The notes under the pieces: model-generated | Seen by the model: only the letters and a program-made list of their open reading frames with translations | Told to the model about the DNA's origin: nothing | The model's database searches: none | Source of the DNA: Terriglobia bacterium | GTDB taxonomy: Bacteria > Acidobacteriota > Terriglobia > Terriglobales > Acidobacteriaceae | Direction: 5' to 3' | DNA: 64,000 nt | NCBI GenBank assembly: GCA_963727085.1 | Contig: CAVSER010000006.1 | Coordinates: 14,537 to 78,536, forward strand | Translations under genes and position numbers: made by a program | Part shown: in pieces, positions 3,031-40,833 of the stretch | Numbering within the stretch: the stretch's first letter is position 1 | How the letters are laid out: every line of letters begins with the position of its first letter

Positions 3031-3444
3031 TCAACTTGTTCGCGGCTTGCGCAGTGATCCGGTGATGACGGCGCCCAGGTCGAGTAGGCACATCAGCGAA
3101 ATGATCCCCAGCGAAATTACACAGTAGACGCACCAGACGCCGAGGACATGGGCCTCGATGTGCGCCAGATAGAGCGAGAAGGCGAGTCCGGCGAATGTGG
3201 GGATGATCAGCAGACGGTAGGCGCGAAATAGCGCGAGCGCGGCCATGAGGACGTATCCCAGGATGCCAACGGTGGCGACGGGAATGGGTCCGAGCATGGC
3301 GTAACGGCTGTGGTTGACCACGCCGCAATCCCAGTGTTCGTTGATGCTGCAGGGGGAGTCTCCGTATTCGCGATAGTGTTCGCGGAGTGCGAGGGAGGAG
3401 ACGATGATTCCCATGATGGCTAGGAGCAGAAGTAGGTATTTCAT
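3031..3444 (-). CDS. Vitamin K epoxide reductase (VKOR) family membrane protein
   Basis: 137 aa, about 4 hydrophobic helices. Loop cysteine pair C-x7-C (DSPCSINEHWDCGVV) and membrane CxxC (VWCVYCVIS), as in bacterial VKOR/DsbB-analog proteins. About 90 nt downstream of the SCO gene on the same strand. Confidence 0.8.
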   Translation of the reverse strand: MKYLLLLLAIMGIIVSSLALREHYREYGDSPCSINEHWDCGVVNHSRYAMLGPIPVATVGILGYVLMAALALFRAYRLLIIPTFAGLAFSLYLAHIEAHVLGVWCVYCVISLGIISLMCLLDLGAVITGSLRKPRTS

Positions 3445-3536
3445 AGGGTCAAGGTTTCAGAGTCTCAAGGTTTCCAGGCGCTCGATCACAGATGTACTCT
3501 TCCCGCCTGGACCCCGTAAATCCTGACACATGCTTG

Positions 3537-7923: not shown

Positions 7924-8071
7924 GTGGCTGTTGAAAAACTCCTTCCCGCGAAATTCGCGAAAATAAAATCGCGCTAGGATGCCCTACAAACGACGATCTT
8001 AGTTTTCGAGACATTTTCTATCCCCCAAATTTCGACTGTTTGGGAGGAAACTGGAGTTTTTCAACAGCCAC
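7924..8071 (+). ncRNA. Structured element in the IS110 #1 upstream non-coding end (candidate bridge-RNA scaffold, or a MITE-like hairpin)
   Basis: Perfect 19-bp inverted repeat: gtggctgttgaaaaactcc (7924..7942) and ggagtttttcaacagccac (8053..8071). It encloses 110 nt with internal palindromes (cgcgaa-a-ttcgcg at 7946..7958; cccaaa...tttggg). It ends 90 nt before the transposase ATG. Confidence 0.3.
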
Positions 8072-8160
8072 AGGCGATAGCACGCAATATAAAAAGGCGC
8101 CCACTTTTGCGGTAGGTTGAGATTGTTCGGATCACCAACCTAGCGAAAGGGAGCGCCTTT

Positions 8161-9228
8161 ATGAATCAGGAAAAGTATATCGGCATGGACGTGCACCAAG
8201 CCACCATCTCGGTGGCGGTGATGGATGGTGCGGGCAAGCTGATCATGGAATGTCTGCTGGAGACCAAGGCGGCCACGATCATAGATTTCATCCGAGGATT
8301 GCAAGGAACCCTTTCTGTGACCTTCGAAGAGGGAACCTCGGCTGCCTGGTTGCATGACCTGCTGAAGCCTCGTGTCCACCATCTTGTAGTCTGCGATCCG
8401 CGCAAGAACGCTCGGTTGAAGGATGGCAACAAGAGCGACCGGATCGACGCGCGCAAACTGGCCGAGTTGTTACGCGGCAACCAACTCCATCCCGTGTACC
8501 ACGGAGAGCATGGGGTTCGTACCTTGAAGGAACTAGGGCGAAGTTATCTGACCATCACCCAGGATGTGACCCGCGTGATGAATCGCATCAAAGCGCTGTA
8601 TCGCAGCTGGGCGATTCCGTGCGCAGGCGCAACCGTCTACTCTCCCCGTCATCGCGCCGAGTGGTTGTCGAAGATCACGGAACCAGGAGTTCGGGTTCGC
8701 GCCGAGCGGCTCTATCAGCAACTGGATCTGTTGCAACCGGTGCGTCTGGAAGCGCGACGCGAGTTACTGGCGGAAAGCCACAAACATTCGGGCGTGAGGC
8801 TACTGCGCCAGATTCCTTCGATCGGTCCAATCCGCTCGGCCTTGCTGGTGGCCTTGCTGCAGACCCCGCACCGTTTCCGCACCAAGCGCCAACTATGGGC
8901 CTACAGTGGTTTTGCAGTCGAGACCCACGACAGCGGCGAGTACCGCTCGGTGCGCGGCAAACTGCAACGCAACCGCGAGCGCATGACGGTACGCGGTCTG
9001 AATGACAACCACAATCGAGAGCTGAAGAATCTGTTCAAGAGTGCTGCGGTGTCGGCCAGCACACGTCCTGGCCCTCTGCGCGATTTTTATGTGGCTCGAG
9101 TAGAGAAAGGAATGCGGCCGACCATGGCCCGTCTCACCTTGGCACGGAAGCTGGCCGCGATCAGTTTAACCATCTGGAAGAAAGGGGTGGACTTCGACGC
9201 CAACCAATTGCAGCGACAAGCAGCTTGA
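8161..9228 (+). CDS. IS110 family transposase (DEDD/RuvC-like N-domain plus Tnp_20-like C-domain)
   Basis: N-terminus YIGMDVHQATISVAVMDGAGKL. C-terminal LRQIPSIGPIRSALLVALLQTPHRFRTKRQLWAYSGFAVETHDSGE with the characteristic SG. RBS aaagggag upstream. Confidence 0.9.
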   Translation: MNQEKYIGMDVHQATISVAVMDGAGKLIMECLLETKAATIIDFIRGLQGTLSVTFEEGTSAAWLHDLLKPRVHHLVVCDPRKNARLKDGNKSDRIDARKLAELLRGNQLHPVYHGEHGVRTLKELGRSYLTITQDVTRVMNRIKALYRSWAIPCAGATVYSPRHRAEWLSKITEPGVRVRAERLYQQLDLLQPVRLEARRELLAESHKHSGVRLLRQIPSIGPIRSALLVALLQTPHRFRTKRQLWAYSGFAVETHDSGEYRSVRGKLQRNRERMTVRGLNDNHNRELKNLFKSAAVSASTRPGPLRDFYVARVEKGMRPTMARLTLARKLAAISLTIWKKGVDFDANQLQRQAA

Positions 9229-9573
9229 GCATCTCTGAGCCACAGGCTTTTCCATCTCTGCGGTGTACTCCGGTGGTGGACGGTCGGGTTCTGCAGATGC
9301 TCGGTTCGAGGGTGAGTATCAGTCAATGAGATCGGCCCCGTGTGCTTCGGCACCGAGTCACCCATTACACGCTATGCCCCCTCGGATAACCAGAAATAGC
9401 GATAGGCCACGAGCCTCGGATAGAACCATGGTTAACACTCGTCCTGCTTGCCGCGTCTTGCACACCCGGTGTTGCCACCAGCAGCAGAGAAACCTTACGA
9501 GATGGACAAAGAGCCGAACATCTTCAGAGATAACGAAACACAGTGGGCTGGATCTCGAGAAATAATCTCTCTC

Positions 9574-9669: not shown

Positions 9670-10551
9670 TCACGGATTCCAGCAATACTTTCTTGCGTAC
9701 GACAATTTCAACTTTTCTGTTGGAGCAGGCTTAACCTCAACCTCATGGATCGTCTTATTTGGAGTGCTCGGGGGCACGTACCTCAGGTAGTACATCCGAT
9801 TTATGAGTTCCCGAATGCTCGTGAATACTTTTGGTACTTCCTGCCTGCCAATGTTATCGAAGGACTCGCCGCCCGTTAGCTCAGCAAAATCCTCCATGAT
9901 TTTGTCGCCTTTGGAAACAACCCCCGTTTGAAGTGTATCGATCGTGAAGATCACTGCTCCTGACTTGAGCGCCTCTGAAACTGCCTCGCCGCGCGTCGTA
10001 TGGCTTTGGTTGTCATCGCCGTCACTCACCAACACCAGTATTCGCCTTGTTGGTTTTGTCCAATCGCGACGTCCAAGCCTTTGCTGGCAGGCAATTGCTA
10101 GCGAATCATAAAGGGCCGTTCCGCCACCGACCCCGACCTGGACGGTAGTCTTTCGCAGTTGATCTTTATTAAGCCATTCAGTCATCTGCGGAGTAGCCTG
10201 AAATGTGAGGAGAAACACTCTATCTTCGGGGCTAAGCATGGTCTCACTCACGAACTGATCCATCGCCTTTAGGATTTCGCCGAAATTGGAACTGCGCCGC
10301 GAGTTGCTGGTATCGATCAAGACACCCAATTCCAATGGGAGGTCGGCTCCGGGCAGCAGATCTATGGCAGAGACCGCTATCTTCTGGTCAGTGACCAGCA
10401 GAGATTGAGACGATACGATAGTCGGTCGGTGATGCGCACCAAACGCGATAAGGGGAACAGCCACGTGTGGACTTGAATCCCGACCAACGGCTGGAAATGC
10501 GAGGAATACTAGCAGACACGCTTTGCAGAGCCGCGCCATCACTTCCTCCAT
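9670..10551 (-). CDS. VWA (von Willebrand factor A) domain-containing secreted protein
   Basis: Signal peptide (MARLCKACLLVFLAFPAVG; the start may be the second Met at 10539). MIDAS-like LIDTSNSRRSS. ...GGGTALYDSL...ILVLVSDGDDNQS, typical of VWA. Confidence 0.8.
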   Translation of the reverse strand: MEEVMARLCKACLLVFLAFPAVGRDSSPHVAVPLIAFGAHHRPTIVSSQSLLVTDQKIAVSAIDLLPGADLPLELGVLIDTSNSRRSSNFGEILKAMDQFVSETMLSPEDRVFLLTFQATPQMTEWLNKDQLRKTTVQVGVGGGTALYDSLAIACQQRLGRRDWTKPTRRILVLVSDGDDNQSHTTRGEAVSEALKSGAVIFTIDTLQTGVVSKGDKIMEDFAELTGGESFDNIGRQEVPKVFTSIRELINRMYYLRYVPPSTPNKTIHEVEVKPAPTEKLKLSYARKYCWNP

Positions 10552-12428
10552 TCAAAACCGCTAACGCTTGTCAGAGCTTATCTTACGACGGACAGAATAA
10601 GTACTGCATGTTAACTGTCGACACCAGATGGGATGAGAAGGCCGGTCTCCGGACGGGATGCGGTGTACGCTCCCAAGTTATCGACGTGCTCGAAGCACAG
10701 ATAAAAAGGAGACCGGCAATGAAGAAGGTTAGCACCAGAGCAGCAGCGCAGAGCAGGAATATTTCGCAACAGAAATTGACCATCGGATTGGATCTGGGCG
10801 ATCGCAACAGTTGGTACTGCGTGCTGGACGAATCCGGCCAGATACAACTGGAGCAGCGCGTGCGCACGAATGCGAAAGCGTTATCCGAAGTCTTTGGCGC
10901 AATGCCGCGCAGTCGGATCGCACTGGAAATCGGGACGCATTCGCCCTGGATCAGCCGCTTGTTGAGCGAGTTGGGGCACGAGGTGATCGTGGCCAATGCG
11001 CGCAAGGTACGGCTGATCGGGGAGAGCCGCAAGAAAGACGATCGGCTGGATGCGCAGACGCTGGCGCGGTTGGCCCGGATCGATCCGGAGTTGCTGTATC
11101 CGGTGAAGCATCGCAGCGCGCAAGCGCAAGCCGATCTCATGATGATTCGGGCGCGGGCCGGTCTGGTGCGCGCCCGCACGGCGCTGGTCAACACGGCCCG
11201 CGGACTAGCCAAGAGCTACGGCGAGCGGTTGCGGGGATGCAACGTGCGGAATATGAATCCGGAGAAAGCCGAAGGATTGAGTCCGGAACTGCAAAGTGCG
11301 CTGGAACCATTGTTGAACGCAATCGAGTCGCTGAGCGAGCGCATCGTGGAATACAACGAGCGCATCGAGAAGCTGGCACTGCAGAGCTATCCGCAGGTGG
11401 CGTTGCTGAAGCAGATCAAGGGTGTGGGCACGTTGATCGCGCTGACCTTCTTGCTGACGCTGGAAGATCCCCATCGCTTTGGCAAGAGCCGCGACGTGGG
11501 CTGCTACCTAGGGTTACAACCGGGACGCAGAAACTCCGGAAAGAGCGAGCCGCAGCTGCACATCAGCAAGGAAGGCGATCCGTACCTGCGCACCCTGCTG
11601 GTGCAGGGAGCGCAGCACATTCTGGGACCGTTTGGGGTCGATTGTGACCTGCGGCGCTGGGGCTTGAAACTAGCCGAACGTGGAGGGAGAAACGGAAAGA
11701 AGCGAGCCATCGTGGCGACCGCCAGAAAGCTGGCAGTGTTGCTGCATCACCTGTGGGTGAGCGGAGAAGCCTACGAACCATTGCATAACAGCAGCCCAAC
11801 GACAGTAGCGGCAGCCGCGTAATAACAGAACTGCTCCAAGAAGAGATAAAGACAAAAGCCCAAAGCCGAGTTCCGGTGACTGCGTTAATCGCCTGGCCCA
11901 GGTTCAACGCTCCAAGAGCTGAACCACAGGGCGCCAAACAGATGGCAGCACCGGCTGAACCGAGAACACCCAATATGCACCGAGCGAAACGAATCGCTCC
12001 TCGAGAGTGCGGATGGAAGCATGGCGACAGTGGCTAACTCGGCGGGAGAAAAATCGTTGTTCCATGAAGCCCGAGAAGAATCGACTTGACTCCGACCGGC
12101 CTTCTCATGGAAGGCGATTTCACGCTTTGACCCGTTCCTGGCTAGATGGATCCCAGGACTTACGTCCTGGGCTAATGAATGGCGTCGCTTTCGCGACTCT
12201 CCCGACCGAGCGCCGCGAAGGCTGGCTGGGAACGAGCTATTTCTCAATCACTTACGGGGGTTGCGTTCAGGCCTATGAGGAGCATTCGCGTCGTCCCAAG
12301 CGCTCTACGAGTTGCTCAAAAGTGTCGTTCGTGCGTGTGTCTTCAGTGACGTTTATAGGGGCCGGGGGCGTTGCTACCGTCATCCTCAGGTACCGGTGCG
12401 TGTGGTACCAAAGCGAGGATGGCTATCA
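10552..12428 (+). mobile_element. IS110-family insertion sequence #2 (outer limits only; true ends not determined)
   Basis: Transposase gene 10719..11822 with about 165 nt upstream and about 600 nt downstream of non-coding sequence. Its sequence is unrelated to IS #1 except for a shared 15-mer at the left side. Confidence 0.4.
10719..11822 (+). CDS. IS110 family transposase
   Basis: The listed ORF starts at 10467, but the RBS aaaaggag precedes ATG 10719 (MKKVSTR...). LTIGLDLGDRNSWYCVLDESGQ (DEDD N-domain). LKQIKGVGTLIALTFLLTLEDPHRFGKSRDVGCYLGLQPGRRNSGKS (Tnp_20-like with SG). Confidence 0.9.
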   Translation: MKKVSTRAAAQSRNISQQKLTIGLDLGDRNSWYCVLDESGQIQLEQRVRTNAKALSEVFGAMPRSRIALEIGTHSPWISRLLSELGHEVIVANARKVRLIGESRKKDDRLDAQTLARLARIDPELLYPVKHRSAQAQADLMMIRARAGLVRARTALVNTARGLAKSYGERLRGCNVRNMNPEKAEGLSPELQSALEPLLNAIESLSERIVEYNERIEKLALQSYPQVALLKQIKGVGTLIALTFLLTLEDPHRFGKSRDVGCYLGLQPGRRNSGKSEPQLHISKEGDPYLRTLLVQGAQHILGPFGVDCDLRRWGLKLAERGGRNGKKRAIVATARKLAVLLHHLWVSGEAYEPLHNSSPTTVAAAA

Positions 12429-14563: not shown

Positions 14564-14722
14564 GCCCCTTCGGGGCTTGAATCTCTTTCGATCGGCTACC
14601 CAGGGCTTACGCCGTGGGCTGCATTCTTCCGCCGCTTCGCGGCTGGTCTGCCCATCCCCGCCGGGGCTAAAGCCCCTCATCCAATCGGCCCTTGACGCGA
14701 CCCTAAAGGGCCGCTCTTCCAC
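14564..14722 (+). repeat. Mosaic of REP-like units (families B and C) inside the yidC-jag spacer
   Basis: gccccttcggggc (14564..14576). Family C unit cagggcttacgccgtgggctgcattcttccgccgcttcgcggctgg (14601..14646). Family B units ggggctaaagcccc (14663..14676) and gcgaccctaaagggccgctcttccac (14697..14722). Confidence 0.75.
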
Positions 14723-29636: not shown

Positions 29637-29657
29637 GCTTGAATACTGAGGAGGGAT

Positions 29658-30185
29658 ATGGCTCGGATTGGATTGATCGCGCCGGAGGATGCTTCGGCGG
29701 AGGTGAAGGAAATTTACGAGAAGGTGCTTCGCGGTAAGCCCGGCAATGTGCAGAAGGCGATCGCGCATCGTCCGGACATGCTGAAGAATTTCCTCGGTTT
29801 CTATGCGAGCGTGGGGCGTTCGCTCGATCGCAAGCTGTATGAGCTGATTTATATCCGCGTGTCCCTGATCAATGGGTGCCGGTACTGCACCCAGCATCAT
29901 GTGGCATCGTCGAAGCGGGTGGGGCTTACCGCAGAAGATTGGGCAGCACTGAAGGCTGGGGACTATTCACGCTACAGTGCGAAGGAGCAGGCTGCGCTGC
30001 ACTATGTCGAGAAGCTGACGCGTTCGCCGCAGGAGATCACCGATGCGGATTTTGCACCACTGAAAAGCGCGTTCTCGGATGCCGAGATTGTGGACGTGCA
30101 TGCCTTGGCAGGGCTGGCGAATTTCACCAACCGGGTTACGGATCCGCTGGGTTTGGAGCTGGAAATTGTGGAGGAGAAGATCTAG
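29658..30185 (+). CDS. Carboxymuconolactone decarboxylase (AhpD-like) family protein
   Basis: VSLINGCRYCTQHH (CxxC of the AhpD/CMD family). 175 aa. Confidence 0.8.
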   Translation: MARIGLIAPEDASAEVKEIYEKVLRGKPGNVQKAIAHRPDMLKNFLGFYASVGRSLDRKLYELIYIRVSLINGCRYCTQHHVASSKRVGLTAEDWAALKAGDYSRYSAKEQAALHYVEKLTRSPQEITDADFAPLKSAFSDAEIVDVHALAGLANFTNRVTDPLGLELEIVEEKI

Positions 30186-30220
30186 CAGTGTTTTCAGACT
30201 GAAGGCTTGATGCAGGCCGG

Positions 30221-30270
30221 AATGCACAGATCCTGAAGCGCGCAAAGGACGCAAACGCTTCAGGATGACA
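30221..30270 (+). repeat. REP-like palindromic element, family A (full-length copy)
   Basis: AATGCACAGATCCTGAAGCG-cgcaaaggacgcaaa-CGCTTCAGGATGACA, between convergent genes. Confidence 0.75.
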
Positions 30271-30298
30271 ATTTATCGGAGACGCTGACACATCCATC

Positions 30299-31228
30299 TC
30301 ACCAGGCGTCGGGATAGATGTAGGCGGGCGAGTCCGCGTAGAGCCATGGGTTGTACCAGTAGGGTGGCCAGCCCCAGAAGGGATCCCAACCGAAACCCCA
30401 TGCCGGGCCCCAACCCCATCCCCAGCCAAAGCCGAGTCCCCAACCGCAACATCCCCAACCTCCCCATCCCCAACCGCGGCCACCGAAGCCGCCGCGCCAG
30501 CCGTTTCCACGCCAGCCGTTTCCGCGCCAGGCCGCGTTCATGGATGCAACTGAGCCACGGGTCACCAAGGAGTTCGAGCGCATGCTCGCGGCAACATTTG
30601 CGCCTGAGCGGGCCCCCAGAGAGTTGCGGGCGGTGCCTCCGAAGCCGTGCCATTGTCCATCACGCATCGCGGCGTGAGAGGAGGGCATTCCGGCGCCAGC
30701 GCGCGCCGTCATCCCAGAGTTAGCGAAGCGTCCCCCCATGCCGGCTTGCCTGGACCTCGAGCCCATGCTGCCGACGTTGGAGGATCTCGCAAAGGAATGC
30801 CATCCGGGAGAGGTGTTGCGGACACCGCGGCCCTCAGAGGCCCAAGCACGGTAACCAGATCCCATCGAGGATCCGCCGCGCATGCCGCCGTAGGATCCGC
30901 GACCGCCCTGGAAGCCGTGACCATTGGCGCCACCGAACGATCCGCCGCGGTAACCGCCGCGAGAAAATCCGCCGCCCCGGTATCCTCCTCCGCCGAAACC
31001 TCCTCCGCGATAGCCGCCACCGGAGAAGCCACCCCCATGAGATCCACCACCACCGCCGTGGAAACCTCCACCACCACCGCCGTGGAATCCACCGCCGCCA
31101 CCGTGAAAACCACCACCGCCTCCTCCGCCGTGACCGCCGCCATGTTGAGCGAGAGCAGGGACGGGCAGCGAGATGAGAGCAATCGAAGCGATACCTGCGA
31201 GAAGAGTCTGTGACAAGGTGCAACGCAT
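30299..31228 (-). CDS. Secreted Gly-rich low-complexity protein with Gly/Trp-rich C-terminus
   Basis: Signal peptide MRCTLSQTLLAGIASIALISLPVPALAQ. (G)nFH and GGYRGGGF repeats. C-terminus WRGNGWRGNGWRGGFGGRGWGWGGWGCCGWGLGFGWGWGWGPAWGFGWDPFWGWPPYWYNPW. Confidence 0.65.
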   Translation of the reverse strand: MRCTLSQTLLAGIASIALISLPVPALAQHGGGHGGGGGGGFHGGGGGFHGGGGGGFHGGGGGSHGGGFSGGGYRGGGFGGGGYRGGGFSRGGYRGGSFGGANGHGFQGGRGSYGGMRGGSSMGSGYRAWASEGRGVRNTSPGWHSFARSSNVGSMGSRSRQAGMGGRFANSGMTARAGAGMPSSHAAMRDGQWHGFGGTARNSLGARSGANVAASMRSNSLVTRGSVASMNAAWRGNGWRGNGWRGGFGGRGWGWGGWGCCGWGLGFGWGWGWGPAWGFGWDPFWGWPPYWYNPWLYADSPAYIYPDAW

Positions 31229-31526
31229 GGGAGTTTCCTCCAGCAGCAGGAGACTACGGCCTCATTGAGGATGAGGCGTCTCTATCCGAATCCTACTCCG
31301 GATTGGATTTGCAATCCAGCGAAAGCGTTGTCCGGAGCGGGCTCGCGAAGAAAAAAGTGCGCGCAACATTTCACTCGCGCTTGTGTTTACGCAGAGGAAT
31401 AAGTGTGCCGGATGCGCGACTTAACCGTGGAAGTGGATGGGAGAGTCCTGCATGAAAATTCCAACCGATAGCCCTGAACAACACTTCTTATCTGGATCAC
31501 CAAGTTAAGATTGAAGGGAACCCTCA

Positions 31527-33389
31527 TTGCGCAATAAAGGCCGAGTCATCGTTGTACTTTCCATGATCCTGATTGCTGTTAGCCTGTCGACCGCCTGCGG
31601 CGGCGGAACGGCATCAACAAGTGGCGCCGGACCCGGACAGTTCACGCACGTTTACGTCGTGTTCCCACCGTCCACGAGCGACCCGAATCATTCCCACTTC
31701 ATGAACACGGTGATGAACCAGACGGCGATCGAGGGCGTGACGGTTGCAACTCCGTGGAACCAGGTCGAAACGACTACACCCGGACCGGGCACATGCAGTC
31801 CGGTCGGCACGGATACGTGCCAGCTCGATGCGTATGGCTGGACGCACACCTACAACTGGTCGAACGTCGATACTGCGAACGCTGTGTGGTTTGGAGCGCA
31901 ATCGGGATTGAAAAAGATGAATGTGATTCTGGTCGGGATCGGCGGCGCTTCGCCGAATTGCCTGCTGATTAACACTTGCGTGAACGGGCTGACTCCGAAG
32001 TATGTGACGACATCGAGCTGGGCGGCGCAAACGGGCTCAGGCAACGAAGACCTGATCAACGGCAATAAGGACGGGTGTTCGAACTACGTCGGACTGATCG
32101 CGAGTTCGATGACGCGGAATGCAAGCGGACTGGTCACTGTGACGGAGTCGAATCATGGGTATTCGAATGGCGACACAATTTGGGTGGGAGGGACGACGCC
32201 GTCAAATTTCAACATTGCCCAGGAAAAGATCACGAATGTGCAGGTGACGTCGTCTAGTTCGACCCTGACGATCACGGCGACGAACAGCCTTCCTGTGGGA
32301 ACGCGGGTGACGTTTCAGAACCTAGGGGCGGCGACGTTCTTGAACGGACAGACCGTGACCATCAACAGCGCAAATCCAAGTTCATTCACCGCTACGTTTA
32401 CGCACTCGGATTATGGCCCGGCGGCCGAGAGCAGGGGAACGGCGAATCCGCTTGGCGTCACGGTGCAGAACGTGACCAGTAGTACGTTCCAATATCAGAC
32501 GGCAGTTGCCAGTGCGGGTTCTGCAACCACTGCGGGTACGGTGGTCAGCGCGCAGCAATCCTATCCGGTGCCGTATGAAGCGCCGTACAAGGCTGGATGG
32601 GAGGCGTTCGTCGCGGCGGCGATCATGCACTACAACGCGTCTCCCAATCTTTCTCAGATTTCCTACATGCGGGTGGGCCGGTCCGTGGGCGGCGAGGCGT
32701 ATCCGGAGTGCATGGGAAACATGGAGCAGCTGCCTGCGCCGAACACGTATACGCGATCGGGATGGCTGCAGTACTACACCGATATCGACGAGATTGTGCA
32801 GGCGCAGAATCCGAAGATGCAGATTCTCGATCCGCTGAATGAGTCGGGCGGGGGAGCGAGTGTTGATCCGTCTTATGGTTCGGATGAAGCGCTGATCGCG
32901 GTGAGCTACAAAAATGCTGCAGGGAAGACGAACGGCATCGGCAGCCAGGGTCTGCAGGCGAGCGACATCACGAACTACGCCAATGGGCAAAGTTGCAGCT
33001 CGGATTGGTGCGGAGCTTTTAACAGCTACGAGTCGAAAGGAATCCCGCTTGAACTGCAACAAGTGGGCCTGTCGGCGCCTGTGGCAATTAGTGGGACGAA
33101 CAGCGCGACCGGCGACCTGCGGCCGCTGCTTCCTTTTGCCGTAAGCCGGCATGTGACGATCCTGGAACTCTATGATCTCGATGCGTTGCTGGCTTACGAT
33201 CCGAACTATTGCGTGCTTCCGGCGGTGAATGGATTGTGCGGACCGGGGAGCGTGCAAATTCCGATCATTGCCCTGCCTCCGCAGGATCAGCTGCCGTACT
33301 TCCAGGCTGTGGGGCAGCCAGGGCAATCAGGCGGGACCGGAGATGGATCATACGCGACCGTGATCAACGGTACTGAGGGGCAGCACTAG
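31527..33389 (+). CDS. Lipoprotein, hypothetical (620 aa)
   Basis: TTG/alternative start as listed. Lipobox in VIVVLSMILIAVSLSTACGGG. Ser/Thr-rich beta segments. No family recognised. Confidence 0.6.
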   Translation: MRNKGRVIVVLSMILIAVSLSTACGGGTASTSGAGPGQFTHVYVVFPPSTSDPNHSHFMNTVMNQTAIEGVTVATPWNQVETTTPGPGTCSPVGTDTCQLDAYGWTHTYNWSNVDTANAVWFGAQSGLKKMNVILVGIGGASPNCLLINTCVNGLTPKYVTTSSWAAQTGSGNEDLINGNKDGCSNYVGLIASSMTRNASGLVTVTESNHGYSNGDTIWVGGTTPSNFNIAQEKITNVQVTSSSSTLTITATNSLPVGTRVTFQNLGAATFLNGQTVTINSANPSSFTATFTHSDYGPAAESRGTANPLGVTVQNVTSSTFQYQTAVASAGSATTAGTVVSAQQSYPVPYEAPYKAGWEAFVAAAIMHYNASPNLSQISYMRVGRSVGGEAYPECMGNMEQLPAPNTYTRSGWLQYYTDIDEIVQAQNPKMQILDPLNESGGGASVDPSYGSDEALIAVSYKNAAGKTNGIGSQGLQASDITNYANGQSCSSDWCGAFNSYESKGIPLELQQVGLSAPVAISGTNSATGDLRPLLPFAVSRHVTILELYDLDALLAYDPNYCVLPAVNGLCGPGSVQIPIIALPPQDQLPYFQAVGQPGQSGGTGDGSYATVINGTEGQH

Positions 33390-33397
33390 CGCGATGT

Positions 33398-33482
33398 GGA
33401 GGAACCTGCTGCCCCCACAGCTGAAGGGCGGCGGGGCCAGCAAGTTCCTCCTTGTCGCTTGCACGACGCGCCGGGATGACAC
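33398..33482 (+). repeat. REP-like hairpin with family A/B boxes between convergent genes
   Basis: 14-bp stem ggaggaacctgctg (33398..33411) / cagcaagttcctcc (33438..33451), one mismatch. The loop contains ctgaagggcggc. GGATGACA follows at 33474..33481. Confidence 0.55.
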
Positions 33483-33495
33483 ATCTAAAACGGCA

Positions 33496-35103
33496 TTACA
33501 AAGGCATAATCGTGGGTTTGATGCCGACCTGGATGTTGTGAGAAGCCGGCATCGCAACCGCTGTGCTCGCTGTTGTCATGTCTTGATAGTGCCCCCAGCA
33601 AGAGGCGACGGTCTGAGTGCTGGTCGTGCAGTTCCCCGCAGAACCAGTACAAGTTTGAGAACTGTCCCAGATGATGCCGTACTGCTCCCCCGCCTTGGTG
33701 ATGGTGCAGGACCACACTGTCCCACTCGCCGTACACGGGGTCGTTAGGGTGGAGCCTTGCAGCCAGGTAATGGTTTGCTGCATCGCGGTTTCTCCCTGCG
33801 TGCCCGCCTGGCTCTGCAGCGTGTTCCAGTCGTAGTACGCGACTCCCGAAATGCCGAGAGACCAGCTCATCAGGTAGAAGCGCGGAAAGAACGAAGCTGC
33901 GAGGTCCTTGTTTGCATAGCTGGTGCAATTGCTGTCGGTGAAGCCGTTCGGGCAATAGGAAGCTTCGCCATCCCAGAACGGCTTGGCCAACTCGGCCGGC
34001 TGCAAGACGGCCTGAATGTTGGCTACATACAACTGCATCCCTGTCTCCACGCCGCAGAGCGAGGTTCCCTTCGGTCCGCAATGGCTCGAAGTCGTGCCTT
34101 CATTCCCGGGCTTCATGTGAACATTGATTACATCAATCGCCGCCGCCGTTGCATTCTTCGGATTAGGACACGGCAACTGATACGCACGATTGCCCGTGAG
34201 GTCTGAAGTGCTGTTGCAATAGAGTTCATTCTGCGTGTACTCCACCGCCATGCCGTCCTTGGCATGCGTCGACGACATTACGATCATCGCTGTGGGATCG
34301 ATTGCCGCCGCCGTGCACGGAGTCGCGGTGCCATCTCCGTGATCGTGAATGACATTCTTGCCGCCCTGGCTGCCCAGGATAATGCAGCGTGCATCTTCAG
34401 TCAGCCGCGCCAGCTGGGCAAAACTGCCTTTGAAAAAACACTGGGAAGTGGAGTTACAAGTTCCATCCGGCTCGTTCCAGATTTCGTAATAACGAATGTG
34501 CGCATGCTTCTTGGATCCAGTGAGATAGCTGGGGTCATTGGCGTGTTTAGCCAGTTGAGTGATCCAGTCTTTCCAGATGGCATTGGTTCCGGTGCCGTCC
34601 GCGTTCAGGTCGTTCGGCGGATAGCATTCTCCATTTCCCTGCCCGAGAGCGGTGCCCATGTCATGGCAGGAGGTTGTATCCGACGGATTGGCGCTCGCCC
34701 AGGGTGGAGTGCGCGCCAGCGTATACATGACTTCAATTGCGCCGATGGAGTAGTCACTCGCGTGCATCGCGTCGAGATTCGACCATGTGTATGTCGGCAG
34801 GTTCGTGGTGGTGTTGCAGGGTGTCCCTTTGCTGTCGAAGCTTGCGCAACTCGAAATGGACGGCCACTGCATTCCTGAGGAGTCCCAGAGACGGTGCATT
34901 CCATAAGAGACGGTCGGGACGGCAGTGCCCTGCTTGGTCGAAGTTTCTGTGTAGCCGAACATCGGCGACGCTCCGAGCGTCAGCATTGAGACTGTTCCGT
35001 CGGCGAGGGTGAAGTTCCCCTGCATCGTTCCATTTCCGCTCAATGTGATCTGAGCATGGGCGACGGTGGTGAATAGCAGAAATCCAAACGTTAGGAATTT
35101 CAT
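33496..35103 (-). CDS. Secreted clan GH-A-like glycoside hydrolase, putative
   Basis: Signal peptide MKFLTFGFLLFTTVAHAQ. IRYYEIWNEPDG acid/base-type motif. Later FWDGEASY. The ATG lies 2 nt after the stop of the collagen-like gene. Confidence 0.45.
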   Translation of the reverse strand: MKFLTFGFLLFTTVAHAQITLSGNGTMQGNFTLADGTVSMLTLGASPMFGYTETSTKQGTAVPTVSYGMHRLWDSSGMQWPSISSCASFDSKGTPCNTTTNLPTYTWSNLDAMHASDYSIGAIEVMYTLARTPPWASANPSDTTSCHDMGTALGQGNGECYPPNDLNADGTGTNAIWKDWITQLAKHANDPSYLTGSKKHAHIRYYEIWNEPDGTCNSTSQCFFKGSFAQLARLTEDARCIILGSQGGKNVIHDHGDGTATPCTAAAIDPTAMIVMSSTHAKDGMAVEYTQNELYCNSTSDLTGNRAYQLPCPNPKNATAAAIDVINVHMKPGNEGTTSSHCGPKGTSLCGVETGMQLYVANIQAVLQPAELAKPFWDGEASYCPNGFTDSNCTSYANKDLAASFFPRFYLMSWSLGISGVAYYDWNTLQSQAGTQGETAMQQTITWLQGSTLTTPCTASGTVWSCTITKAGEQYGIIWDSSQTCTGSAGNCTTSTQTVASCWGHYQDMTTASTAVAMPASHNIQVGIKPTIMPL

Positions 35104-35105
35104 AT

Positions 35106-35919
35106 CTACTTCACCTGCAGATGGAAGGCTTCAATGTCGACATCGGAGCTGTTTCCGTACTTGGAGACGGCTCGTACGAGGACATCCTGTTTCGCGCCGC
35201 TGGGTACTGTTGCCCACGTGGAAACATGTGCTCCGGTGGAACTCGCGGACGCGGAACTTGTCAGGCCTTTCCAAGTTGTGCCGCCGTCAACGGAGTACTG
35301 GCAATAAACGATCGCTGCCGAAGGGCCGTAGTTGCTTCCGATCTGCGCATAGGCTCGGACCTGCGATGCGCTCGAAAGATCCACTTGGACGCGGACAGTT
35401 TCGCCGAAAAGTTCGTTGAGATTGGCCGGCATGGACCATGTCTGGGAACCCGAGACGGTAAGAGCGGCGTGCGTGACCAGGGCGTAGTCAATCGGAGCGG
35501 CGACCACTCCGGCGGGTTCCTTGGGGACCTATGGCACCAGTCGTGCCAACTGGCCCTTGAGGACCGGTTGCGCCAGTTGCTCCGGTCGCGCCCTTGACGC
35601 CGGTTGGTCCGGCAGGGCCCTGCGGCCCCGCAGCTCCAGCGGGACCTTGTGGTCCAATGGGCCCGGGCAGTCCAGGCTGCAGTGCGAAGGCAGGAGCGCC
35701 GTTGACCGAGACAGTGACAGAGTTGTTGTTGCCGCAGATTGTGGCTCTACCGGCGGCACTCGTGGTGCCTCCGTTGCAAGCTCCGGAGATGTCGAAATCC
35801 ATTCGGAATTGCCCGGCCGTTCCATTTACAGTGACTGGGGAAGCGAGGGTGCTCTGCGCTCGCGCAGAGGAAAACGACATAGTGACGATGGCGAATAAAA
35901 TTAGAAGAAGTCGACGCAT
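35106..35919 (-). pseudogene. Secreted collagen-like (G-X-Y repeat) protein with C-terminal globular domain, split by a 1-nt frameshift near 35515-35521
   Basis: ORF 35488..35919 has the signal peptide [22 protein letters not shown] and about 18 G-X-Y triplets ([52 protein letters not shown]). It then goes off-pattern (TRRSGRRSD, stop). ORF 35106..35507 in another frame begins ...[15 protein letters not shown]. Removing one nt from ggaaccc restores [15 protein letters not shown].... Confidence 0.65.
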
Positions 35920-36260: not shown

Positions 36261-37019
36261 CTAATTTTGCGAGACTGAGGCTACCGGTTGCGCCTGGGGT
36301 TCGATGCGCTGGCGGACGAGACTTTCGACCTGCGACCAGATGCGCGGGTCGCATTCGCTTTGCATGTGATTACCCATGAAGGCGCGATCAAACCAGGAAG
36401 TGCCTTCACACTTTACGGGGGCCTGCTGATAGTCAAAGCGATAGTTGCCGATGATTTGCGTTTTCGAGTCATCCTCGGCGCGAATCTCAGAACGTCCGTG
36501 TACGAAGCCGTGCGGCTGGTAGAAATTGACTGCGGCTTCGACGTTCTCGGGAATTACGTCGTCGCGCTGCCAGGGCTTGGCCACACTGTCGACCTGCACG
36601 GTTAACAACACGGGAATGCCGGCATGATCTAATTCGCGCGCGAGAAGCACGACGGCAGAAGCTCCCCAGCTGTGGCCGAACAAAATGATATGGGCGTTCG
36701 ACTTCTCCGTTTGACTCAGCGCGCCATTGCGATCGCTGTCCAAAAGATGAAGGATGGTTTTGTAAGCGGACTTGCGATGACGATTCTCGAAGACTTGAAT
36801 AAAGGAGTTCTTGGGAAGCGTGTGCCCTGTCTGCTGCGCGAAGATGACGGGTCCTTGATGGGGATTGTTGTGGCGGACGAAGCCGCCTACGAAGCCCACC
36901 ACGATATAGGGCGGAGCCGGCGGTGTGACGATGCTGCCATCGGCTGCAATCAATAGCGGGGCAGCAACGATCAACGCGAGCGCCGCGACAGCACATCGAA
37001 TTCGCGTGAAAGCAGGCAC
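36261..37019 (-). CDS. Alpha/beta hydrolase (lipase/esterase-like), secreted
   Basis: Nucleophile elbow ILFGHSWGASAV (GxSxG). GTG at 37019 gives the signal-like N-terminus (M)PAFTRIRCAVAALALIVAAPLLIAADG. The listed ORF extends to 37181 with a non-credible N-terminus. Confidence 0.6.
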   Translation of the reverse strand: MPAFTRIRCAVAALALIVAAPLLIAADGSIVTPPAPPYIVVGFVGGFVRHNNPHQGPVIFAQQTGHTLPKNSFIQVFENRHRKSAYKTILHLLDSDRNGALSQTEKSNAHIILFGHSWGASAVVLLARELDHAGIPVLLTVQVDSVAKPWQRDDVIPENVEAAVNFYQPHGFVHGRSEIRAEDDSKTQIIGNYRFDYQQAPVKCEGTSWFDRAFMGNHMQSECDPRIWSQVESLVRQRIEPQAQPVASVSQN

Positions 37020-37177
37020 GCGGGGCTCCTGATCGTGAGATGTTTGGCCCACTGCCGGGGTTGCGGAAAATTTCAGGGAGCGCAGCTCCCCAAGCTGCGT
37101 GAAAGGCAAGATGCAAAAGCCGCGTGCAGCAAGGCTTTTACCGTCTTCAGGCCCGGACGACAGTCTACACCTGCGTG

Positions 37178-37831
37178 TCAAGCCCGGTTGTCATATTTCC
37201 GTCCAGAGACGAAAGGATTGCCGTCGATCAGATAGCGCAGCGGGTGCTCTGCCGCTTTCGTGATGCCGATGCGTGGAGTTACTCCAACCTTTCGGGGTTT
37301 GTATCCGTCATCACCGATCCAAAGGGGGCTAGAGGAAGAAGTTAGATCGGCACCATTGTCGCGGGCCCGAGTGATGCAAAAAGCTGCACACAAGCGACCA
37401 GGGCCGCTCGTCAGCCTGACTAAATCTTTTGCGCAGCGGACCTCAACACCGCGTGCGGCGGCCATTTCTTCAATGCCAGTCAGGGGCTCGAGGGCGCGGA
37501 AGAGGACGGACCCGGCACGGCCTTCGGGCTGGCAGGAGACGTTCAGGCAGTAGTGGTTGCCATAGATGAAATAGACATAGGCATAGCCTGGCGGGCCGAA
37601 AAGTACGGAGTTGCGGGGGGTGTTACCTGCGGCGGCGTGGGCGGCTGGATCGTTTTGTCCCAGATAGGCTTCGAGTTCTACTATGCGTCCAATGAGGCGG
37701 TAGCGCCCGGTCTGGCGGACCAGTACTTTGCCGAGCAGAGCGCGGGCGACACGCTTCGGGTCCCGGGAGTAGAAGGCGTGGTCGAGGGGACGGATTGGGG
37801 TGCTGGGGGATGGCTTATGCGAGCCGGGCAT
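37178..37831 (-). CDS. mpg: DNA-3-methyladenine glycosylase (AAG/Mpg family)
   Basis: VARALLGKVLV...IVELEAYLGQNDPAAHAAAGNTPRNSVLFGPPGYAYVYFIYGNHYCLNV. Confidence 0.9.
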   Translation of the reverse strand: MPGSHKPSPSTPIRPLDHAFYSRDPKRVARALLGKVLVRQTGRYRLIGRIVELEAYLGQNDPAAHAAAGNTPRNSVLFGPPGYAYVYFIYGNHYCLNVSCQPEGRAGSVLFRALEPLTGIEEMAAARGVEVRCAKDLVRLTSGPGRLCAAFCITRARDNGADLTSSSSPLWIGDDGYKPRKVGVTPRIGITKAAEHPLRYLIDGNPFVSGRKYDNRA

Positions 37832-38089: not shown

Positions 38090-38647
38090 CTAGATCGGCT
38101 TGTTCTCGGTGTTCTTCGCGAAGTCGATGTTTGAGGGCTCGTCGTCGAAGGACTTGCCGGGCTCGAAAGCAACTTTCTCGTGCTTCCCGCCGCCGACTTT
38201 GCGGATGGCGTCGTGCCATCCGTCGTCCCAGCTAATGTGGGCTTCGCCATCGACGAGCGTCCAAGTTCCGCCGGACGAGCCGATGCTCTTTCTGGCTTTG
38301 CCGTTCTCTTCGAGAGTGATGTAGAAATGCCCGCTGCCACCGCCCTGGCCGACCTCCCATTTTCCGATGAAGTGAGCGCGGCTTGGCATCGATGCCATGG
38401 TGGAGTCGCCAAATTCGATGCGCGCAATTTCGCCCATGATCTTCTCGCGGCGGCCGTTCTTGTAAACAAGCGACGCCGGAGCCTTCATGTCGATGCGGGC
38501 AATCTCCGCAGAAGACAGGCTTTGACGGTGACCGTCTTTGAAGATAATCACGATGGCGTTGTGATCGTCCGCAAGAGCGGAATTCGCGGATGCGACTAAG
38601 AATACGAGTAAGAGACCGACGGCAGATGCACGAACCAGACCGCGCAT
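38090..38647 (-). CDS. Hypothetical secreted protein
   Basis: RBS gggagg before ATG 38647. Signal peptide MRGLVRASAVGLLLVFLVASANSALA. Confidence 0.6.
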   Translation of the reverse strand: MRGLVRASAVGLLLVFLVASANSALADDHNAIVIIFKDGHRQSLSSAEIARIDMKAPASLVYKNGRREKIMGEIARIEFGDSTMASMPSRAHFIGKWEVGQGGGSGHFYITLEENGKARKSIGSSGGTWTLVDGEAHISWDDGWHDAIRKVGGGKHEKVAFEPGKSFDDEPSNIDFAKNTENKPI

Positions 38648-38774: not shown

Positions 38775-39248
38775 TCAACTTGTAGACTTCGCTGATTCTT
38801 TCAAATAGGCCAACACTTCTTCGGCATGGCCATCGGGCTTGACGTTCTCGAACATATGCTGAATTTTGCCGTCCGGGCCGATCACGAACGTGGTTCGGGC
38901 AACGCCCCAGACTTTCTTTCCATACATGTTCTTTTCTTTCATAACCCCGAACGCCTCAGCCACCTTTTTCTCGGCATCAGCCAGCAGGGTGAAGGGCAAG
39001 GCCTCCTGCTCCTGGAATTTCTTTTGCGCTTTGGGCGTGTCGGGGGATATGCCAAGCAGCACGGCGCCGGTCTTCTGCATCTTCTTGTATGAGTCGCGGA
39101 ACCCGCGAGCTTCGATGGTTCAACCGGGGGTGTTGGCCCGCGGATAGAAGAACAGAACTACCGTCTTGCCGCGCAAGTCCCCTATCGCGACCTCTTGTCC
39201 GTTCTCGTCCTGCAAAGTAAAGTCGGGAGCTTTATCATTGACCTTCAT
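38775..39248 (-). CDS. bcp: Bcp/PrxQ-type peroxiredoxin with in-frame UGA at the peroxidatic Cys position (candidate selenocysteine; alternatively a nonsense-inactivated gene)
   Basis: RBS ggaga, ATG 39248. MKVNDKAPDFTLQDENGQEVAIGDLRGKTVVLFFYPRANTPG-[TGA 39122..39120]-TIEARGFRDSYKKMQKTGAVLLGISPD...FVIGPDGKIQHMF... runs to the stop at 38775. It is one continuous frame, 157 codons, colinear with Bcp. The Prx motif PxxxTxxC reads P-RAN-T-PG-UGA. Confidence 0.7.
39090..39119 (-). promoter_or_regulatory. SECIS-like hairpin immediately downstream of the in-frame UGA
   Basis: mRNA: UGA-ACCAUCGA-AG(C)UCGCG-GGUUC-CGCGA-CU. A 5-bp GC stem (6 bp if G-C closes the loop) is extendable by 2 bp across a bulged C. 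The apical loop contains G and U and lies about 17-21 nt after the UGA. Confidence 0.45.
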
Positions 39249-39351
39249 GGGAAATTCTCCGGGCAGATTGAAGTCAAGCGCTAGATCCAGCGTCTGCGGC
39301 TTCTCGAAAATTCTACAACGCTGGATTCTATACCGCGGAGCCACAGTGGCG

Positions 39352-40833
39352 ATGGCGCTCGCAGGCATTTTCGCGGGATCGCTGGCAGCAAGTGCGCAGG
39401 AAGAACGACCGCAGATCATGCCGGGCGAGAGAAACCCGGCGAAGAAGAAAGATTCGGGTCCGCGGGCGCTGGGGATCCTGCAGCTTGGCGCGAACGGGAA
39501 GGCATCGATCATACCGGTGGCGATTCTGATCAACGGCAAATTCTGGGATGCGAGCGCATACAAGGCCGATCCGGTGCCGATGTCGCTGGACTCCGGAGTT
39601 GTGTATGAAGGCGAGCGCGCTGGAAGTCCGCTGGGCCTGTTCACGGTAGGCAGCGCATTGCACAGCAACAATGTCAATTCGCAGGCACCCTGGATTGGGA
39701 CCGGTGCGTGGCGTCCGGCAGGGACCGAACCAATCGCGACGCCGCAGAAAGCGGATAACACTCCGGTCGGGATTGAAGATGCGGATGCGCCACCACGGCT
39801 GACGCGAGATCCGACAGCAGCGAAGCCAGCTGCGGGTGGAAATCCCAGCTCCAGTTCCGGCAAGGCTCCGTCCAGTTCTGCGCCGAAGCCGAGCGACTCG
39901 TCGAGCGATGGACCGCCGCGGCTGAGCAAGGGATCTTCGCCGGCATCGGATTCGCAACAGTCGGGAAGTGCCCCGCCGCCCGCGTCCACGGATAAGCCCG
40001 CCGCCCCGCCGTCCTCTGGAGCAAAGCCATCCGATGCGAAGCCGGCCTCGGAGGCGAAAGTTCCGACATCGGATAGCGGCGCAGACAAAGGGGACCGGCC
40101 GCTATTACGGCACGGGAAGCCAGCGGAATCGTTCGCCGACGAAGATGTGCCGGGATATAGCCGGCCAGGAGCCACGAAATCGGCTACAGCCGGCAAAGCG
40201 GTCGAGACGGCGGCGGCCACGAAGGGTGATGTTCAACTGATTCCGGCGATATCCGATGCGTCTGGTCCTCCTCCGCATTCGTTGTCATTTGATTGGGTTA
40301 AGGGTGACGAGCAAGACCGCCGGACTCAGATCATGGCGATGGCGAAGGAGCAGATCCTGGCGTATGTGTCGGCGCAAGCCAAGAACCGGATCACGCCGAA
40401 GCCCGTACGCCCAACCACCACACGCCACGCCGCGAAGCCGGAAGAGCCGATCTTCGAAAACGTTCAGATGATCGCGTACGATCTATGGAATTCTAACCAG
40501 CCGGTGGTCGTTTTTAGCGCGCAGGTGCACATGCCTCCGCCAGCACCCGGAATGGCGCATTCCGAGATCGATTCGGAGATGCAGTACTTTATTCTGCTGG
40601 TGGTATATCCGGACATTTACAACAACCTGCACAAAATCTACGCGGGAGTTACAGACAAATTTCATATGGACGTGACGCCGCGCCTGGATTTGATCGATGC
40701 CGTCGATGCTGATGGGGACGGGCGGGGGGAGTTGCTGTTCCGCAAGACTTCGGACGCCGGCACGGGCTGGGTCGTGTACCGCGCGACTGCGGATAAGCTG
40801 TGGAAGATATTCGACAGCCTAAGCCCGGAGTAA
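39352..40833 (+). CDS. Hypothetical secreted protein with central Pro/Ser-rich linker
   Basis: The listed ORF (from 39166) overlaps the divergent bcp gene. ATG 39352 gives the signal-like MALAGIFAGSLAASAQ. The C-terminal domain has DADGDGRGELLF (FG-GAP/VCBS-like). Confidence 0.6.
   Translation: MALAGIFAGSLAASAQEERPQIMPGERNPAKKKDSGPRALGILQLGANGKASIIPVAILINGKFWDASAYKADPVPMSLDSGVVYEGERAGSPLGLFTVGSALHSNNVNSQAPWIGTGAWRPAGTEPIATPQKADNTPVGIEDADAPPRLTRDPTAAKPAAGGNPSSSSGKAPSSSAPKPSDSSSDGPPRLSKGSSPASDSQQSGSAPPPASTDKPAAPPSSGAKPSDAKPASEAKVPTSDSGADKGDRPLLRHGKPAESFADEDVPGYSRPGATKSATAGKAVETAAATKGDVQLIPAISDASGPPPHSLSFDWVKGDEQDRRTQIMAMAKEQILAYVSAQAKNRITPKPVRPTTTRHAAKPEEPIFENVQMIAYDLWNSNQPVVVFSAQVHMPPPAPGMAHSEIDSEMQYFILLVVYPDIYNNLHKIYAGVTDKFHMDVTPRLDLIDAVDADGDGRGELLFRKTSDAGTGWVVYRATADKLWKIFDSLSPE

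Follow-up and report, generated by a model that had tools for sequence, protein, structure and literature searches.

The stretch of DNA analysed here, referred to as the window, spans 64,000 nucleotides of the genome of a Terriglobia bacterium (GenBank assembly GCA_963727085.1, contig CAVSER010000006.1, positions 14,537 to 78,536). Its minus strand carries a peroxiredoxin gene, here called prx, in which an in-frame UGA stands at the position of the peroxidatic cysteine. An earlier note, made from the letters of the window alone, had read this gene as a candidate selenoprotein gene hidden by the splitting of its open reading frame (ORF). This proposal is supported by the comparison with orthologs, the selection acting on both halves of the gene, the constraint on a hairpin that follows the UGA and the presence of SelB in relatives. 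We regard it as very probable that prx is a real gene of the Bcp/PrxQ type whose product uses selenocysteine (Sec, U43) as the peroxidatic residue, through recoding of the UGA.

The prx gene and its predicted product

The prx frame opens with the ATG at 39248, reads MKVNDKAPDFTLQDENGQEVAIGDLRGKTVVLFFYPRANTPG up to the TGA at 39122..39120 and continues for 114 further codons to the stop at 38777..38775. Reading and translating the minus strand reproduced the 157-codon frame described in the earlier note. The ORF list likewise holds only what the note had reported, a 101-aa (amino acid) piece and the tail of an antisense ORF of 366 aa; the 42 N-terminal codons of prx form the tail of this ORF (39120..40220), and the public gene calls for the window's contig divide prx in the identical way (Table 1). 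On that public contig, contig_32428 of ENA ERZ25039551 with a length of 354,858 bp, the window occupies positions of about 287,424-351,423. The 366-aa ORF itself is an antisense shadow, cast by a conserved, divergently oriented gene of the plus strand (39166..40833), homologs of which lie upstream of prx in almost all related loci. As ordinary stops in the window are most often TGA, which closes 33 of the 80 long frames, UGA is not reassigned and the code is standard. A promoter and terminator scan of the prx locus gave matches no commoner than those in shuffled sequences.

The predicted product is a thioredoxin-fold thiol peroxidase of the Bcp/PrxQ subfamily. In profile searches, for which U was read as C, Pfam AhpC-TSA matched the product over its full length (E 8.5e-42), and the NCBIfam equivalog model for the E. 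coli-type Bcp, NF006960, matched residues 2-152 of 157 with 166.8 bits against a cutoff of 140. The nearest solved structures are a Burkholderia AhpC/TSA protein, 5enu (E 1e-36), and the BCP of X. campestris. The motif P36-RAN-T40-PG-U43 follows the PxxxTxxC pattern of the subfamily, whose peroxidatic residue begins helix alpha2. In the alignment with 5enu and X. campestris BCP, U43 falls on the Cys of TPGCT, and R118 (within GVARTTF) is aligned to the catalytic Arg of GIERSTF in the BCP structures. Pfam, NF006960 and the structure alignment thus bear out the claims that the protein is colinear with Bcp and that the UGA falls on the peroxidatic Cys, and the statement that the protein otherwise contains no cysteine also holds.

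The resolving Cys at +5, which marks an atypical 2-Cys subgroup and not the Bcp/PrxQ subfamily as a whole, is absent from the window protein. Its place is taken by Arg48 (CGC), which assigns the protein to the 1-Cys, here 1-Sec, type. Compared with the Cys-containing Bcp/PrxQ proteins (E. coli Bcp; X. campestris BCP, 3gkk and 5iiz; Burkholderia 5enu), the window protein is colinear over the full length of about 155 aa and shares the PxxxTxxC pattern and the conserved Arg, and in 5enu, too, there is no Cys at +5. The differences are the UGA/Sec at the peroxidatic position and the lack of cysteine anywhere in the protein.

Other Sec thiol peroxidases of the AhpC/TSA superfamily belong to different subfamilies. 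PrxU of Eubacterium acidaminophilum has been described as a Sec thiol peroxidase (Sohling et al. 2001, as cited in PMC9312934). The window protein scored 57.8 bits with the PrxU model NF040737 (cutoff 270) and 46.9 bits with the Prx-SUH model NF045827 (cutoff 298), and is a member of neither, although the predicted use of Sec for thiol peroxidase chemistry would be shared with both. The motif of Prx-SUH is CxxU, whereas that of the window protein is TxxU.

Table 1. Features of the prx locus (coordinates of the window)
Feature	Position	Strand	Remarks
prx, complete Bcp/PrxQ-type peroxiredoxin gene	38775..39248	-	157 codons including one in-frame UGA, plus stop codon
UGA codon 43, proposed selenocysteine codon	39120..39122	-	peroxidatic position of P36-x3-T40-x2-U43
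Core SECIS-like hairpin	39094..39108	-	codons 47-52 (A-R-G-F-R-D)
GGAG Shine-Dalgarno-like motif	39257..39260	-	8 nt 5' of ATG 39248; read from sequence
101-aa fragment called instead of the whole prx, starting at internal Met57	38775..39080	-	ORF list and public gene calls
185-aa gene, downstream neighbour of prx	38090..38647	-	gene call; kept beside prx in several relatives
Pur_DNA_glyco (3-methyladenine DNA glycosylase family) gene	37178..37831	-	Pfam label; marks positional orthology of the prx locus

Codon 43 and the downstream hairpin among orthologs

One scan of species-representative genomes yielded 80 full-length relatives of the prx product with 64-91% identity, which together with the window make 81 copies; in all, more than 564 genomes have this ortholog. 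The related loci and two Acido-Lenti-1 RNAs of the window (see below) assign the window to the class Terriglobia of the Acidobacteriota. The compared loci carry L-numbers as labels (e.g., L031), the prx set being L001-L081. The genomes are labelled nearly throughout as Acidobacteriota, Terriglobia/Terriglobales, Acidobacteriaceae or 'Candidatus Sulfotelmatobacter'. The gene order of a divergent 555-aa gene, prx, (the 185-aa gene), Pur_DNA_glyco and a hydrolase-like gene recurs with either codon, and in most of the 80 loci, TGA or TGC alike, prx has Pur_DNA_glyco downstream of it; this recurring order identifies the 80 relatives as positional orthologs. The copy closest to the window prx, with 91% identity, is a TGA form on a contig of 2,560 bp (L003, DATJWZ010000061.1) that was binned as 'Candidatus Eisenbacteria'. 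Because its synteny and similarity are those of Terriglobia loci, this contig is probably acidobacterial and was placed in the wrong bin.

The earlier note had named the alignment of orthologs at codon 43 as a check on its proposal. Among the 81 positional orthologs the codon is TGA in 28 (including the window), TGC in 48 and TGT in 5, so that the window copy stands beside 27 other TGA copies and 53 with a Cys codon, all with intact frames. Each of the 28 TGA forms has an open frame of 42 codons before the TGA and 108-116 codons after it. Differences per site at codon positions 1, 2 and 3 among the TGA forms are 0.21, 0.12 and 0.50 upstream of the TGA and 0.20, 0.12 and 0.52 downstream of it, and are indistinguishable from those of the Cys forms. 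Between the window copy and its closest relatives the ratio of nonsynonymous to synonymous divergence (dN/dS) is 0.06-0.16 upstream and 0.03-0.05 downstream of the TGA, at dS of 0.6-1.5. Both halves of the TGA-form prx are under purifying selection. What the note had set down as telling against its proposal, namely close orthologs that all carry Cys and keep no hairpin while the window copy decays, is not what was found: there are 27 TGA orthologs and the gene is undecayed.

The TGA forms stem from independent projects and assemblers (MFD long-read, SMAG, binchicken, JOPF, SPRUCE and others). As independent genomes share the TGA and evolve in a coding manner on both sides of it, a sequencing error, an ordinary pseudogene and a protein made in two pieces are excluded. 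The two-piece protein was rejected also on the ground that no internal start is conserved: ATG57, the start of the 101-aa ORF, is present in only 8 of the 28 TGA forms, and no conserved restart codon follows the TGA. A scan of the window filtered by the GC content at third codon positions (236 candidates) gave no convincing TGA-interrupted gene besides prx.

The earlier note had further described a GC-rich hairpin 11 nt after the UGA, with its loop about 17-21 nt on, and had compared its geometry with that of a bacterial selenocysteine insertion sequence (SECIS). The hairpin, UCGCGG-GUU-CCGCGA on the minus strand, was located as described, at 39108..39094. Its 5' arm lies at 39108-39103, the loop at 39102-39100 and the 3' arm at 39099-39094; the spacing from the UGA is 11 nt to the stem and 17 nt to the loop, which starts with GU at +18. 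Taken singly, this fold lends no support to the selenoprotein interpretation and rather weighs against it: a 66-nt sequence around it folds with z = +0.78 relative to shuffles, no better than chance. The hairpin was therefore judged only by comparison with orthologs. A search of the window with Rfam gathering cutoffs gave no RNA family at the prx locus, its only matches being two Acido-Lenti-1 RNAs in another part of the window.

The aligned copies indicate that the hairpin is under selection at the RNA level only where codon 43 is UGA. Synonymous identity, defined as the fraction of same-residue pairs that share the codon and taken in windows of six codons, is 0.89 in the TGA forms at codons 48-53, the top window of the gene, vs. 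a gene mean of 0.52 (standard deviation 0.088); in the Cys forms it is about 0.6 at the same codons, and in these forms the windows of highest identity are at the start of the gene. Over codons 44-53, third positions diverge by 0.26 among the TGA forms, as against 0.47 among the Cys forms. Although synonymous divergence elsewhere is close to saturation, twelve TGA forms agree in all 18 nt of GCTCGCGGGTTCCGCGAC, while the 53 Cys forms have 41 versions of the corresponding 18 nt.

Covariation and folding energies agree with this constraint. RNAalifold recovers a core helix of 5 bp (alignment A1, columns 22-26 with 30-34). Compensatory changes from G-C to A-U occur at two pairs, in L067/L079 and in L049, and 85% of the cells are paired, compared with 21-67% when the partners are slid; only 3 of 500 shuffles reach two pairs changed on both sides, and none of the 500 reaches the observed number of doubly changed cells. 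Three TGA forms with Ser48 (TCC) break one pair, yet they are compatible with a helix that is displaced by one position and has a bulge. The local minimum free energy (MFE) is -10.3 +/- 1.7 kcal/mol in the TGA forms and -6.0 +/- 2.5 kcal/mol in the Cys forms (p = 8e-10; this and the other Sec-versus-Cys p-value given here ignore phylogeny). The question whether the hairpin covaries, raised in the earlier note, is thus answered by compensatory changes at two pairs and by synonymous constraint in the TGA forms only.

The model of the bacterial SECIS (bSECIS; PMC13188914) asks for a loop of 3-9 nt, an upper stem of 4-16 bp, a G among the first two nucleotides of the loop, a UGA-to-loop distance of 16-37 nt and an MFE of at most -7.5 kcal/mol. 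The window hairpin lies within all four constraints (GUU loop, 6-bp stem, 17 nt, -8.0 kcal/mol), and its sequence is identical to the clade consensus. The model is matched by 25 of the 28 TGA forms and by 3 of the 53 Cys forms (Fisher p = 1.7e-14), in line with the SECIS geometry that the earlier note had recognized. In common with the E. coli fdhF SECIS and the bSECIS model (PMC13188914), the window element is an in-frame stem-loop 11 nt after the UGA with a small loop that starts with G-U, 17 nt from UGA to loop and an MFE within the -7.5 kcal/mol limit. It differs from them in being very short in the window clade (a 6-bp stem and a 3-nt loop) and is a predicted target of SelB; in other clades the stem grows to 8 bp, and its 3' side has a bulged A or U. 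The 11-nt spacing and the G-U loop start match the E. coli paradigm (PMC1794560, PMC13188914), and recoding is most likely of the SelB type.

According to the mechanism that we propose, UGA43 would not be read as a stop, as the mRNA 11 nt further on would fold into the GC-rich hairpin with the GUU loop and act as a bacterial SECIS. SelB, carrying GTP and Sec-tRNA(Sec), would bind this hairpin through its C-terminal winged-helix domains and deliver Sec to the ribosome. In the finished enzyme, the selenolate of U43, positioned by P36, T40 and R118, would attack the peroxide and become a selenenic acid. 1-Cys Bcp enzymes are recycled directly by an external thiol system. Since the window protein contains no cysteine, its recycling, too, would have to use an external thiol reductant, presumably thioredoxin or glutaredoxin/a low-molecular-weight thiol (a '1-Sec' mechanism).

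Proposed selenocysteine decoding and competing explanations

Acidobacteria have been counted among the Sec-decoding phyla (PMC1794560). A tblastn search with E. coli SelB found a 647-aa ORF 0.8 kb downstream of the TGA-form prx in L031 and a partial match 1.7 kb from the TGA-form prx in L019. The L031 protein scores 377.6 bits with the equivalog model TIGR00475 (cutoff 242) and contains the beta-barrel and the winged-helix domains 2 and 3. The winged-helix domains 2 and 3 of SelB are those that bind the SECIS. Judged by its score and domains, the L031 protein is a bona fide SelB. Homology searches for SelB returned thousands of close proteins, some of them named 'Candidatus Sulfotelmatobacter sp.', and placed SelB about 557 kb from a TGA-form prx in L006 (ERZ25039491 contig_28314, 1,206,784 bp) and about 470 kb from one in L011 (chromosome OY970205.1, 7,243,441 bp). 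TGA-form prx and SelB therefore occur on one DNA molecule in four genomes (L031, L019, L006 and L011). From these associations we infer the rest of the Sec pathway (selA, selD and tRNA-Sec) in the TGA-form relatives, and selABCD are presumably present in the window's own genome as well.

Several results weigh against Sec insertion in the window's own genome, in addition to the unremarkable single-sequence fold and the neglect of phylogeny mentioned above. Homology and tRNA searches agreed with the earlier note that the window contains no selA, selB, selD or selC; none of selA, selB, selD and tRNA-Sec was found in the window or in a further 7.8 kb on the left of the contig, a search that covered about 72 kb of a multi-megabase genome. 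A tblastn search with E. coli SelA and SelD gave no match in the window or in any locus, and ARAGORN, run on the window and the full set of 90 loci, found no tRNA-Sec. Only selB among the four machinery genes is documented, in relatives only, and Sec at codon 43 is a prediction from sequence. A further point of this kind lies in the gene order of the window itself.

In seven relatives (L031, L085 and L092-L096) selB directly adjoins a gene for a 175-aa CMD/AhpD-like protein. L085 and L092-L096 have the common order purF, purL, selB (+), CMD (-), DUF4440, ..., GIDA, MacB, MacB, and in L031, where selB and CMD are adjacent too, selB is flanked on its other side by prx and the 185-aa gene. The window keeps CMD, DUF4440, GIDA, MacB, MacB and DUF7544 (30182 down to 23351) with 65-93% identity to L093. 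Its synteny ends exactly at the end of CMD (junction 29649-30290), with neither selB nor a remnant of it, and about 6 kb of unrelated genes join CMD to the prx neighbourhood.

Such a clean break at the slot that holds selB in seven relatives is what would be expected if the window copy were a recently dead selenoprotein gene, in which selB was lost in the rearrangement and the UGA now terminates translation after 42 residues. Moreover, in three homology searches with progressively closer SelB seeds, none of the best 120 matches listed for each comes from the window's own contig or its sample, ERZ25039551. We nevertheless consider a dead gene unlikely. There is no decay: the frame is intact, the SECIS is that of the clade consensus and dN/dS is 0.03-0.16, while the absence of selB rests on about 72 kb of a multi-megabase genome. 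The gene order, in turn, fits a single event in which selB is kept. Starting from the strand orientations in L011, one inversion of the segment of about 0.5 Mb from the prx neighbourhood to the CMD|selB boundary reproduces the order of the window. If the far breakpoint is placed past selB instead, an inversion yields the order of L031 (prx, 185-aa gene, selB, CMD), which makes L031 a sister case. The broken CMD-selB junction would thus most simply be the result of an inversion of about 0.5 Mb with a breakpoint between CMD and selB. If this is true, selB was kept next to purL, about 0.5 Mb away and thus further than the 287 kb by which the contig extends in that direction.

The region between CMD and the prx neighbourhood (30290-35919, genes on both strands) encodes a protein with collagen-like Gly-X-Y repeats, a 579-aa protein and ORFs of 108, 188 and 309 aa. 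None of these genes gave a family match, and the block has no counterpart beside prx in the relatives, apart from a weak homolog of the 309-aa ORF in L017; it may be material at the rearrangement junction. The 309-aa ORF beside CMD was considered as a degraded selB and rejected, as it has no similarity to selB at the protein or DNA level. The CMD/AhpD-like gene was considered as a selenoprotein gene and likewise rejected, as it has an ordinary CxxC (GCRYCTQHH) and stays below the cutoffs of the '(seleno)protein' models.

If, as we favour, UGA43 is decoded in a living gene, the residue inserted still has to be considered. Readthrough could proceed without selenium, by near-cognate Trp or Cys or by some other route independent of SelB, with the hairpin acting merely as a stimulator of readthrough; selA, selD and tRNA-Sec were seen in no compared locus, and selenium at codon 43 is read from sequence. 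This explanation appears quite improbable to us, more so than a dead gene. The UGA stands exactly at the redox-active Cys, where Trp would kill the enzyme, and 23 of the 28 TGA forms have no other Cys; the hairpin fits the geometry of a SelB-type SECIS, and full-length SelB with winged-helix domains is encoded on shared contigs. Alternation of Sec and Cys at the active site is, in addition, a hallmark of known selenoprotein families (PMC1794560). Finally, the TGA might be put down to a mistake in sequencing or assembly, or to a plain nonsense mutation in a Bcp gene under decay, given that it comes from a single assembly, is one base from TGC and is treated as a stop by database gene calls. This explanation is effectively refuted by the 27 other species-level genomes, produced by independent projects, that carry the TGA, and by the coding-type evolution before and after the codon.

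Probable Sec/Cys exchange and the surroundings of the locus

With Sec as the preferred reading of UGA43, the 81 copies can be viewed as Sec and Cys forms of one enzyme. On a rough neighbour-joining (NJ) protein tree built without codons 43-53, the two states interleave, with at least eight changes. The resolving Cys48 (+5) is present in 53 of 53 Cys forms and in 5 of 28 Sec forms; in the other Sec forms residue 48 is Arg (19), Ser (3) or His (1), and 23 of the 28 have no other Cys at all. Codon 48 makes up the outer portion of the SECIS 5' arm, where CGC gives a C-G pair and UGC a U-G pair. Residue 49 is Gly (GGG, contributing the loop-closing pairs) in 26 of 28 Sec forms vs. 16 of 53 Cys forms. 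Residue 39 is Asp in all 53 Cys forms, and Asn or Ser in 13 of the 28 Sec forms.

Three Cys (TGC) forms, L064, L080 and L014, keep a complete or nearly complete SECIS-like hairpin, which in L064 (-11.5 kcal/mol) and L080 (-12.3 kcal/mol) has the loop GUU; on the NJ tree, L064 falls within a group of Sec forms. These hairpins could be either fossils of a reversion from Sec to Cys or pre-adapted intermediates. The data suggest, as a hypothesis, that the conserved codons for C-G-F-R-D serve as a proto-SECIS and that RNA and protein constraints are entangled at them. A tentative extension, which we think possible but on balance doubtful, is that the SECIS stem was built from the codon of the resolving Cys and the conserved G-F-R-D codons (UGC/CGC GGG UUC CGC GAC), so that the mRNA of the ancestral Cys form would already have been a proto-SECIS at the right distance. 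The use of UGA would then favour CGC over UGC and push a 2-Cys enzyme towards a cysteine-free '1-Sec' one. A proto-SECIS in the Cys-form mRNA would explain the easy flips between Cys and Sec, at least eight at one syntenic locus, and, if it existed, a constraint on RNA structure would dictate a change of catalytic mechanism.

Peroxiredoxins (Prx) are an established family of bacterial selenoproteins, assigned to COG1225 (Bcp)/PF00578 with the motif TxxU or PxxxTxxU (PMC9312934, PMC13188914). In 2006 the family had 12 members and five Cys-to-Sec events (PMC1794560), and the survey of 2016 counted 91 genes in 78 organisms (PMC5029168). Compared by description with this family (representative WP_011365628.1), the window gene has in common the fold, the COG, the proposed Sec in PxxxTxxU and a SECIS-like element just downstream within the coding region; in the family, too, most homologs have Cys, and conversions between Cys and Sec are reported to have occurred repeatedly (PMC1794560). 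The literature searched describes neither the eight or more switches at one locus nor the almost systematic loss of the +5 Cys from Sec forms. The same search found no description of Sec-Bcp genes in Terriglobia/'Sulfotelmatobacter', which is weak evidence of absence. The window gene is therefore best placed as part of a sizeable added clade within the already known Sec-Prx family, and it leaves knowledge of how selenoproteins work unchanged.

The addition bears on the biology and annotation of an abundant soil lineage, Terriglobia/'Sulfotelmatobacter', which joins the probable users of Sec-peroxiredoxins. The identical mis-annotation must affect the TGA orthologs in many metagenome-assembled genomes of soil and peat Acidobacteriota, so that the antioxidant repertoire and selenium dependence of these bacteria would be under-reported. 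The 28 Sec and 53 Cys forms at one locus constitute a dense natural series for Sec/Cys exchange, the birth and decay of SECIS elements and the loss of the resolving Cys; this co-evolution of Sec, Cys and SECIS is the part most worth follow-up.

The 185-aa neighbour of prx has homologs with 43-63% identity in 10 loci (tblastn) and no Pfam or NCBIfam match. At 36261-37181 (-) lies an intact ORF of about 300 aa with a lipase/esterase-like motif, GHSWGAS, which is absent from the public gene table and is kept after Pur_DNA_glyco in the relatives with 62-68% identity. It was considered as a second split selenoprotein gene and rejected, being an intact and conserved hydrolase-like gene.

Further observations concern more distant parts of the window and its relatives. 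Other thiol-redox genes are among them: a VKOR gene and a gene for an SCO1/AhpC-TSA-domain protein lie near the window start, at about 3031-4448 (-) (L084 10822-12239), and in L092 a gene for a TPR-AhpC/TSA-thioredoxin protein (8248-9309) lies two genes from selB. The window also contains a transposase gene of the DDE_Tnp_1/DUF772 type at about 8007-9401 (-) (L084 15798-17192) and an IS110-type transposase gene (DEDD_Tnp_IS110 and Transposase_20) at about 10547-11649 (+) (L084 18338-19440), the latter split into two calls. Two copies of the small RNA Acido-Lenti-1 (Rfam RF01687) are present on the plus strand at 12152-12198 and 14599-14644, 2.4 kb apart, with scores of 52.6 and 48 bits (gathering cutoff 37).

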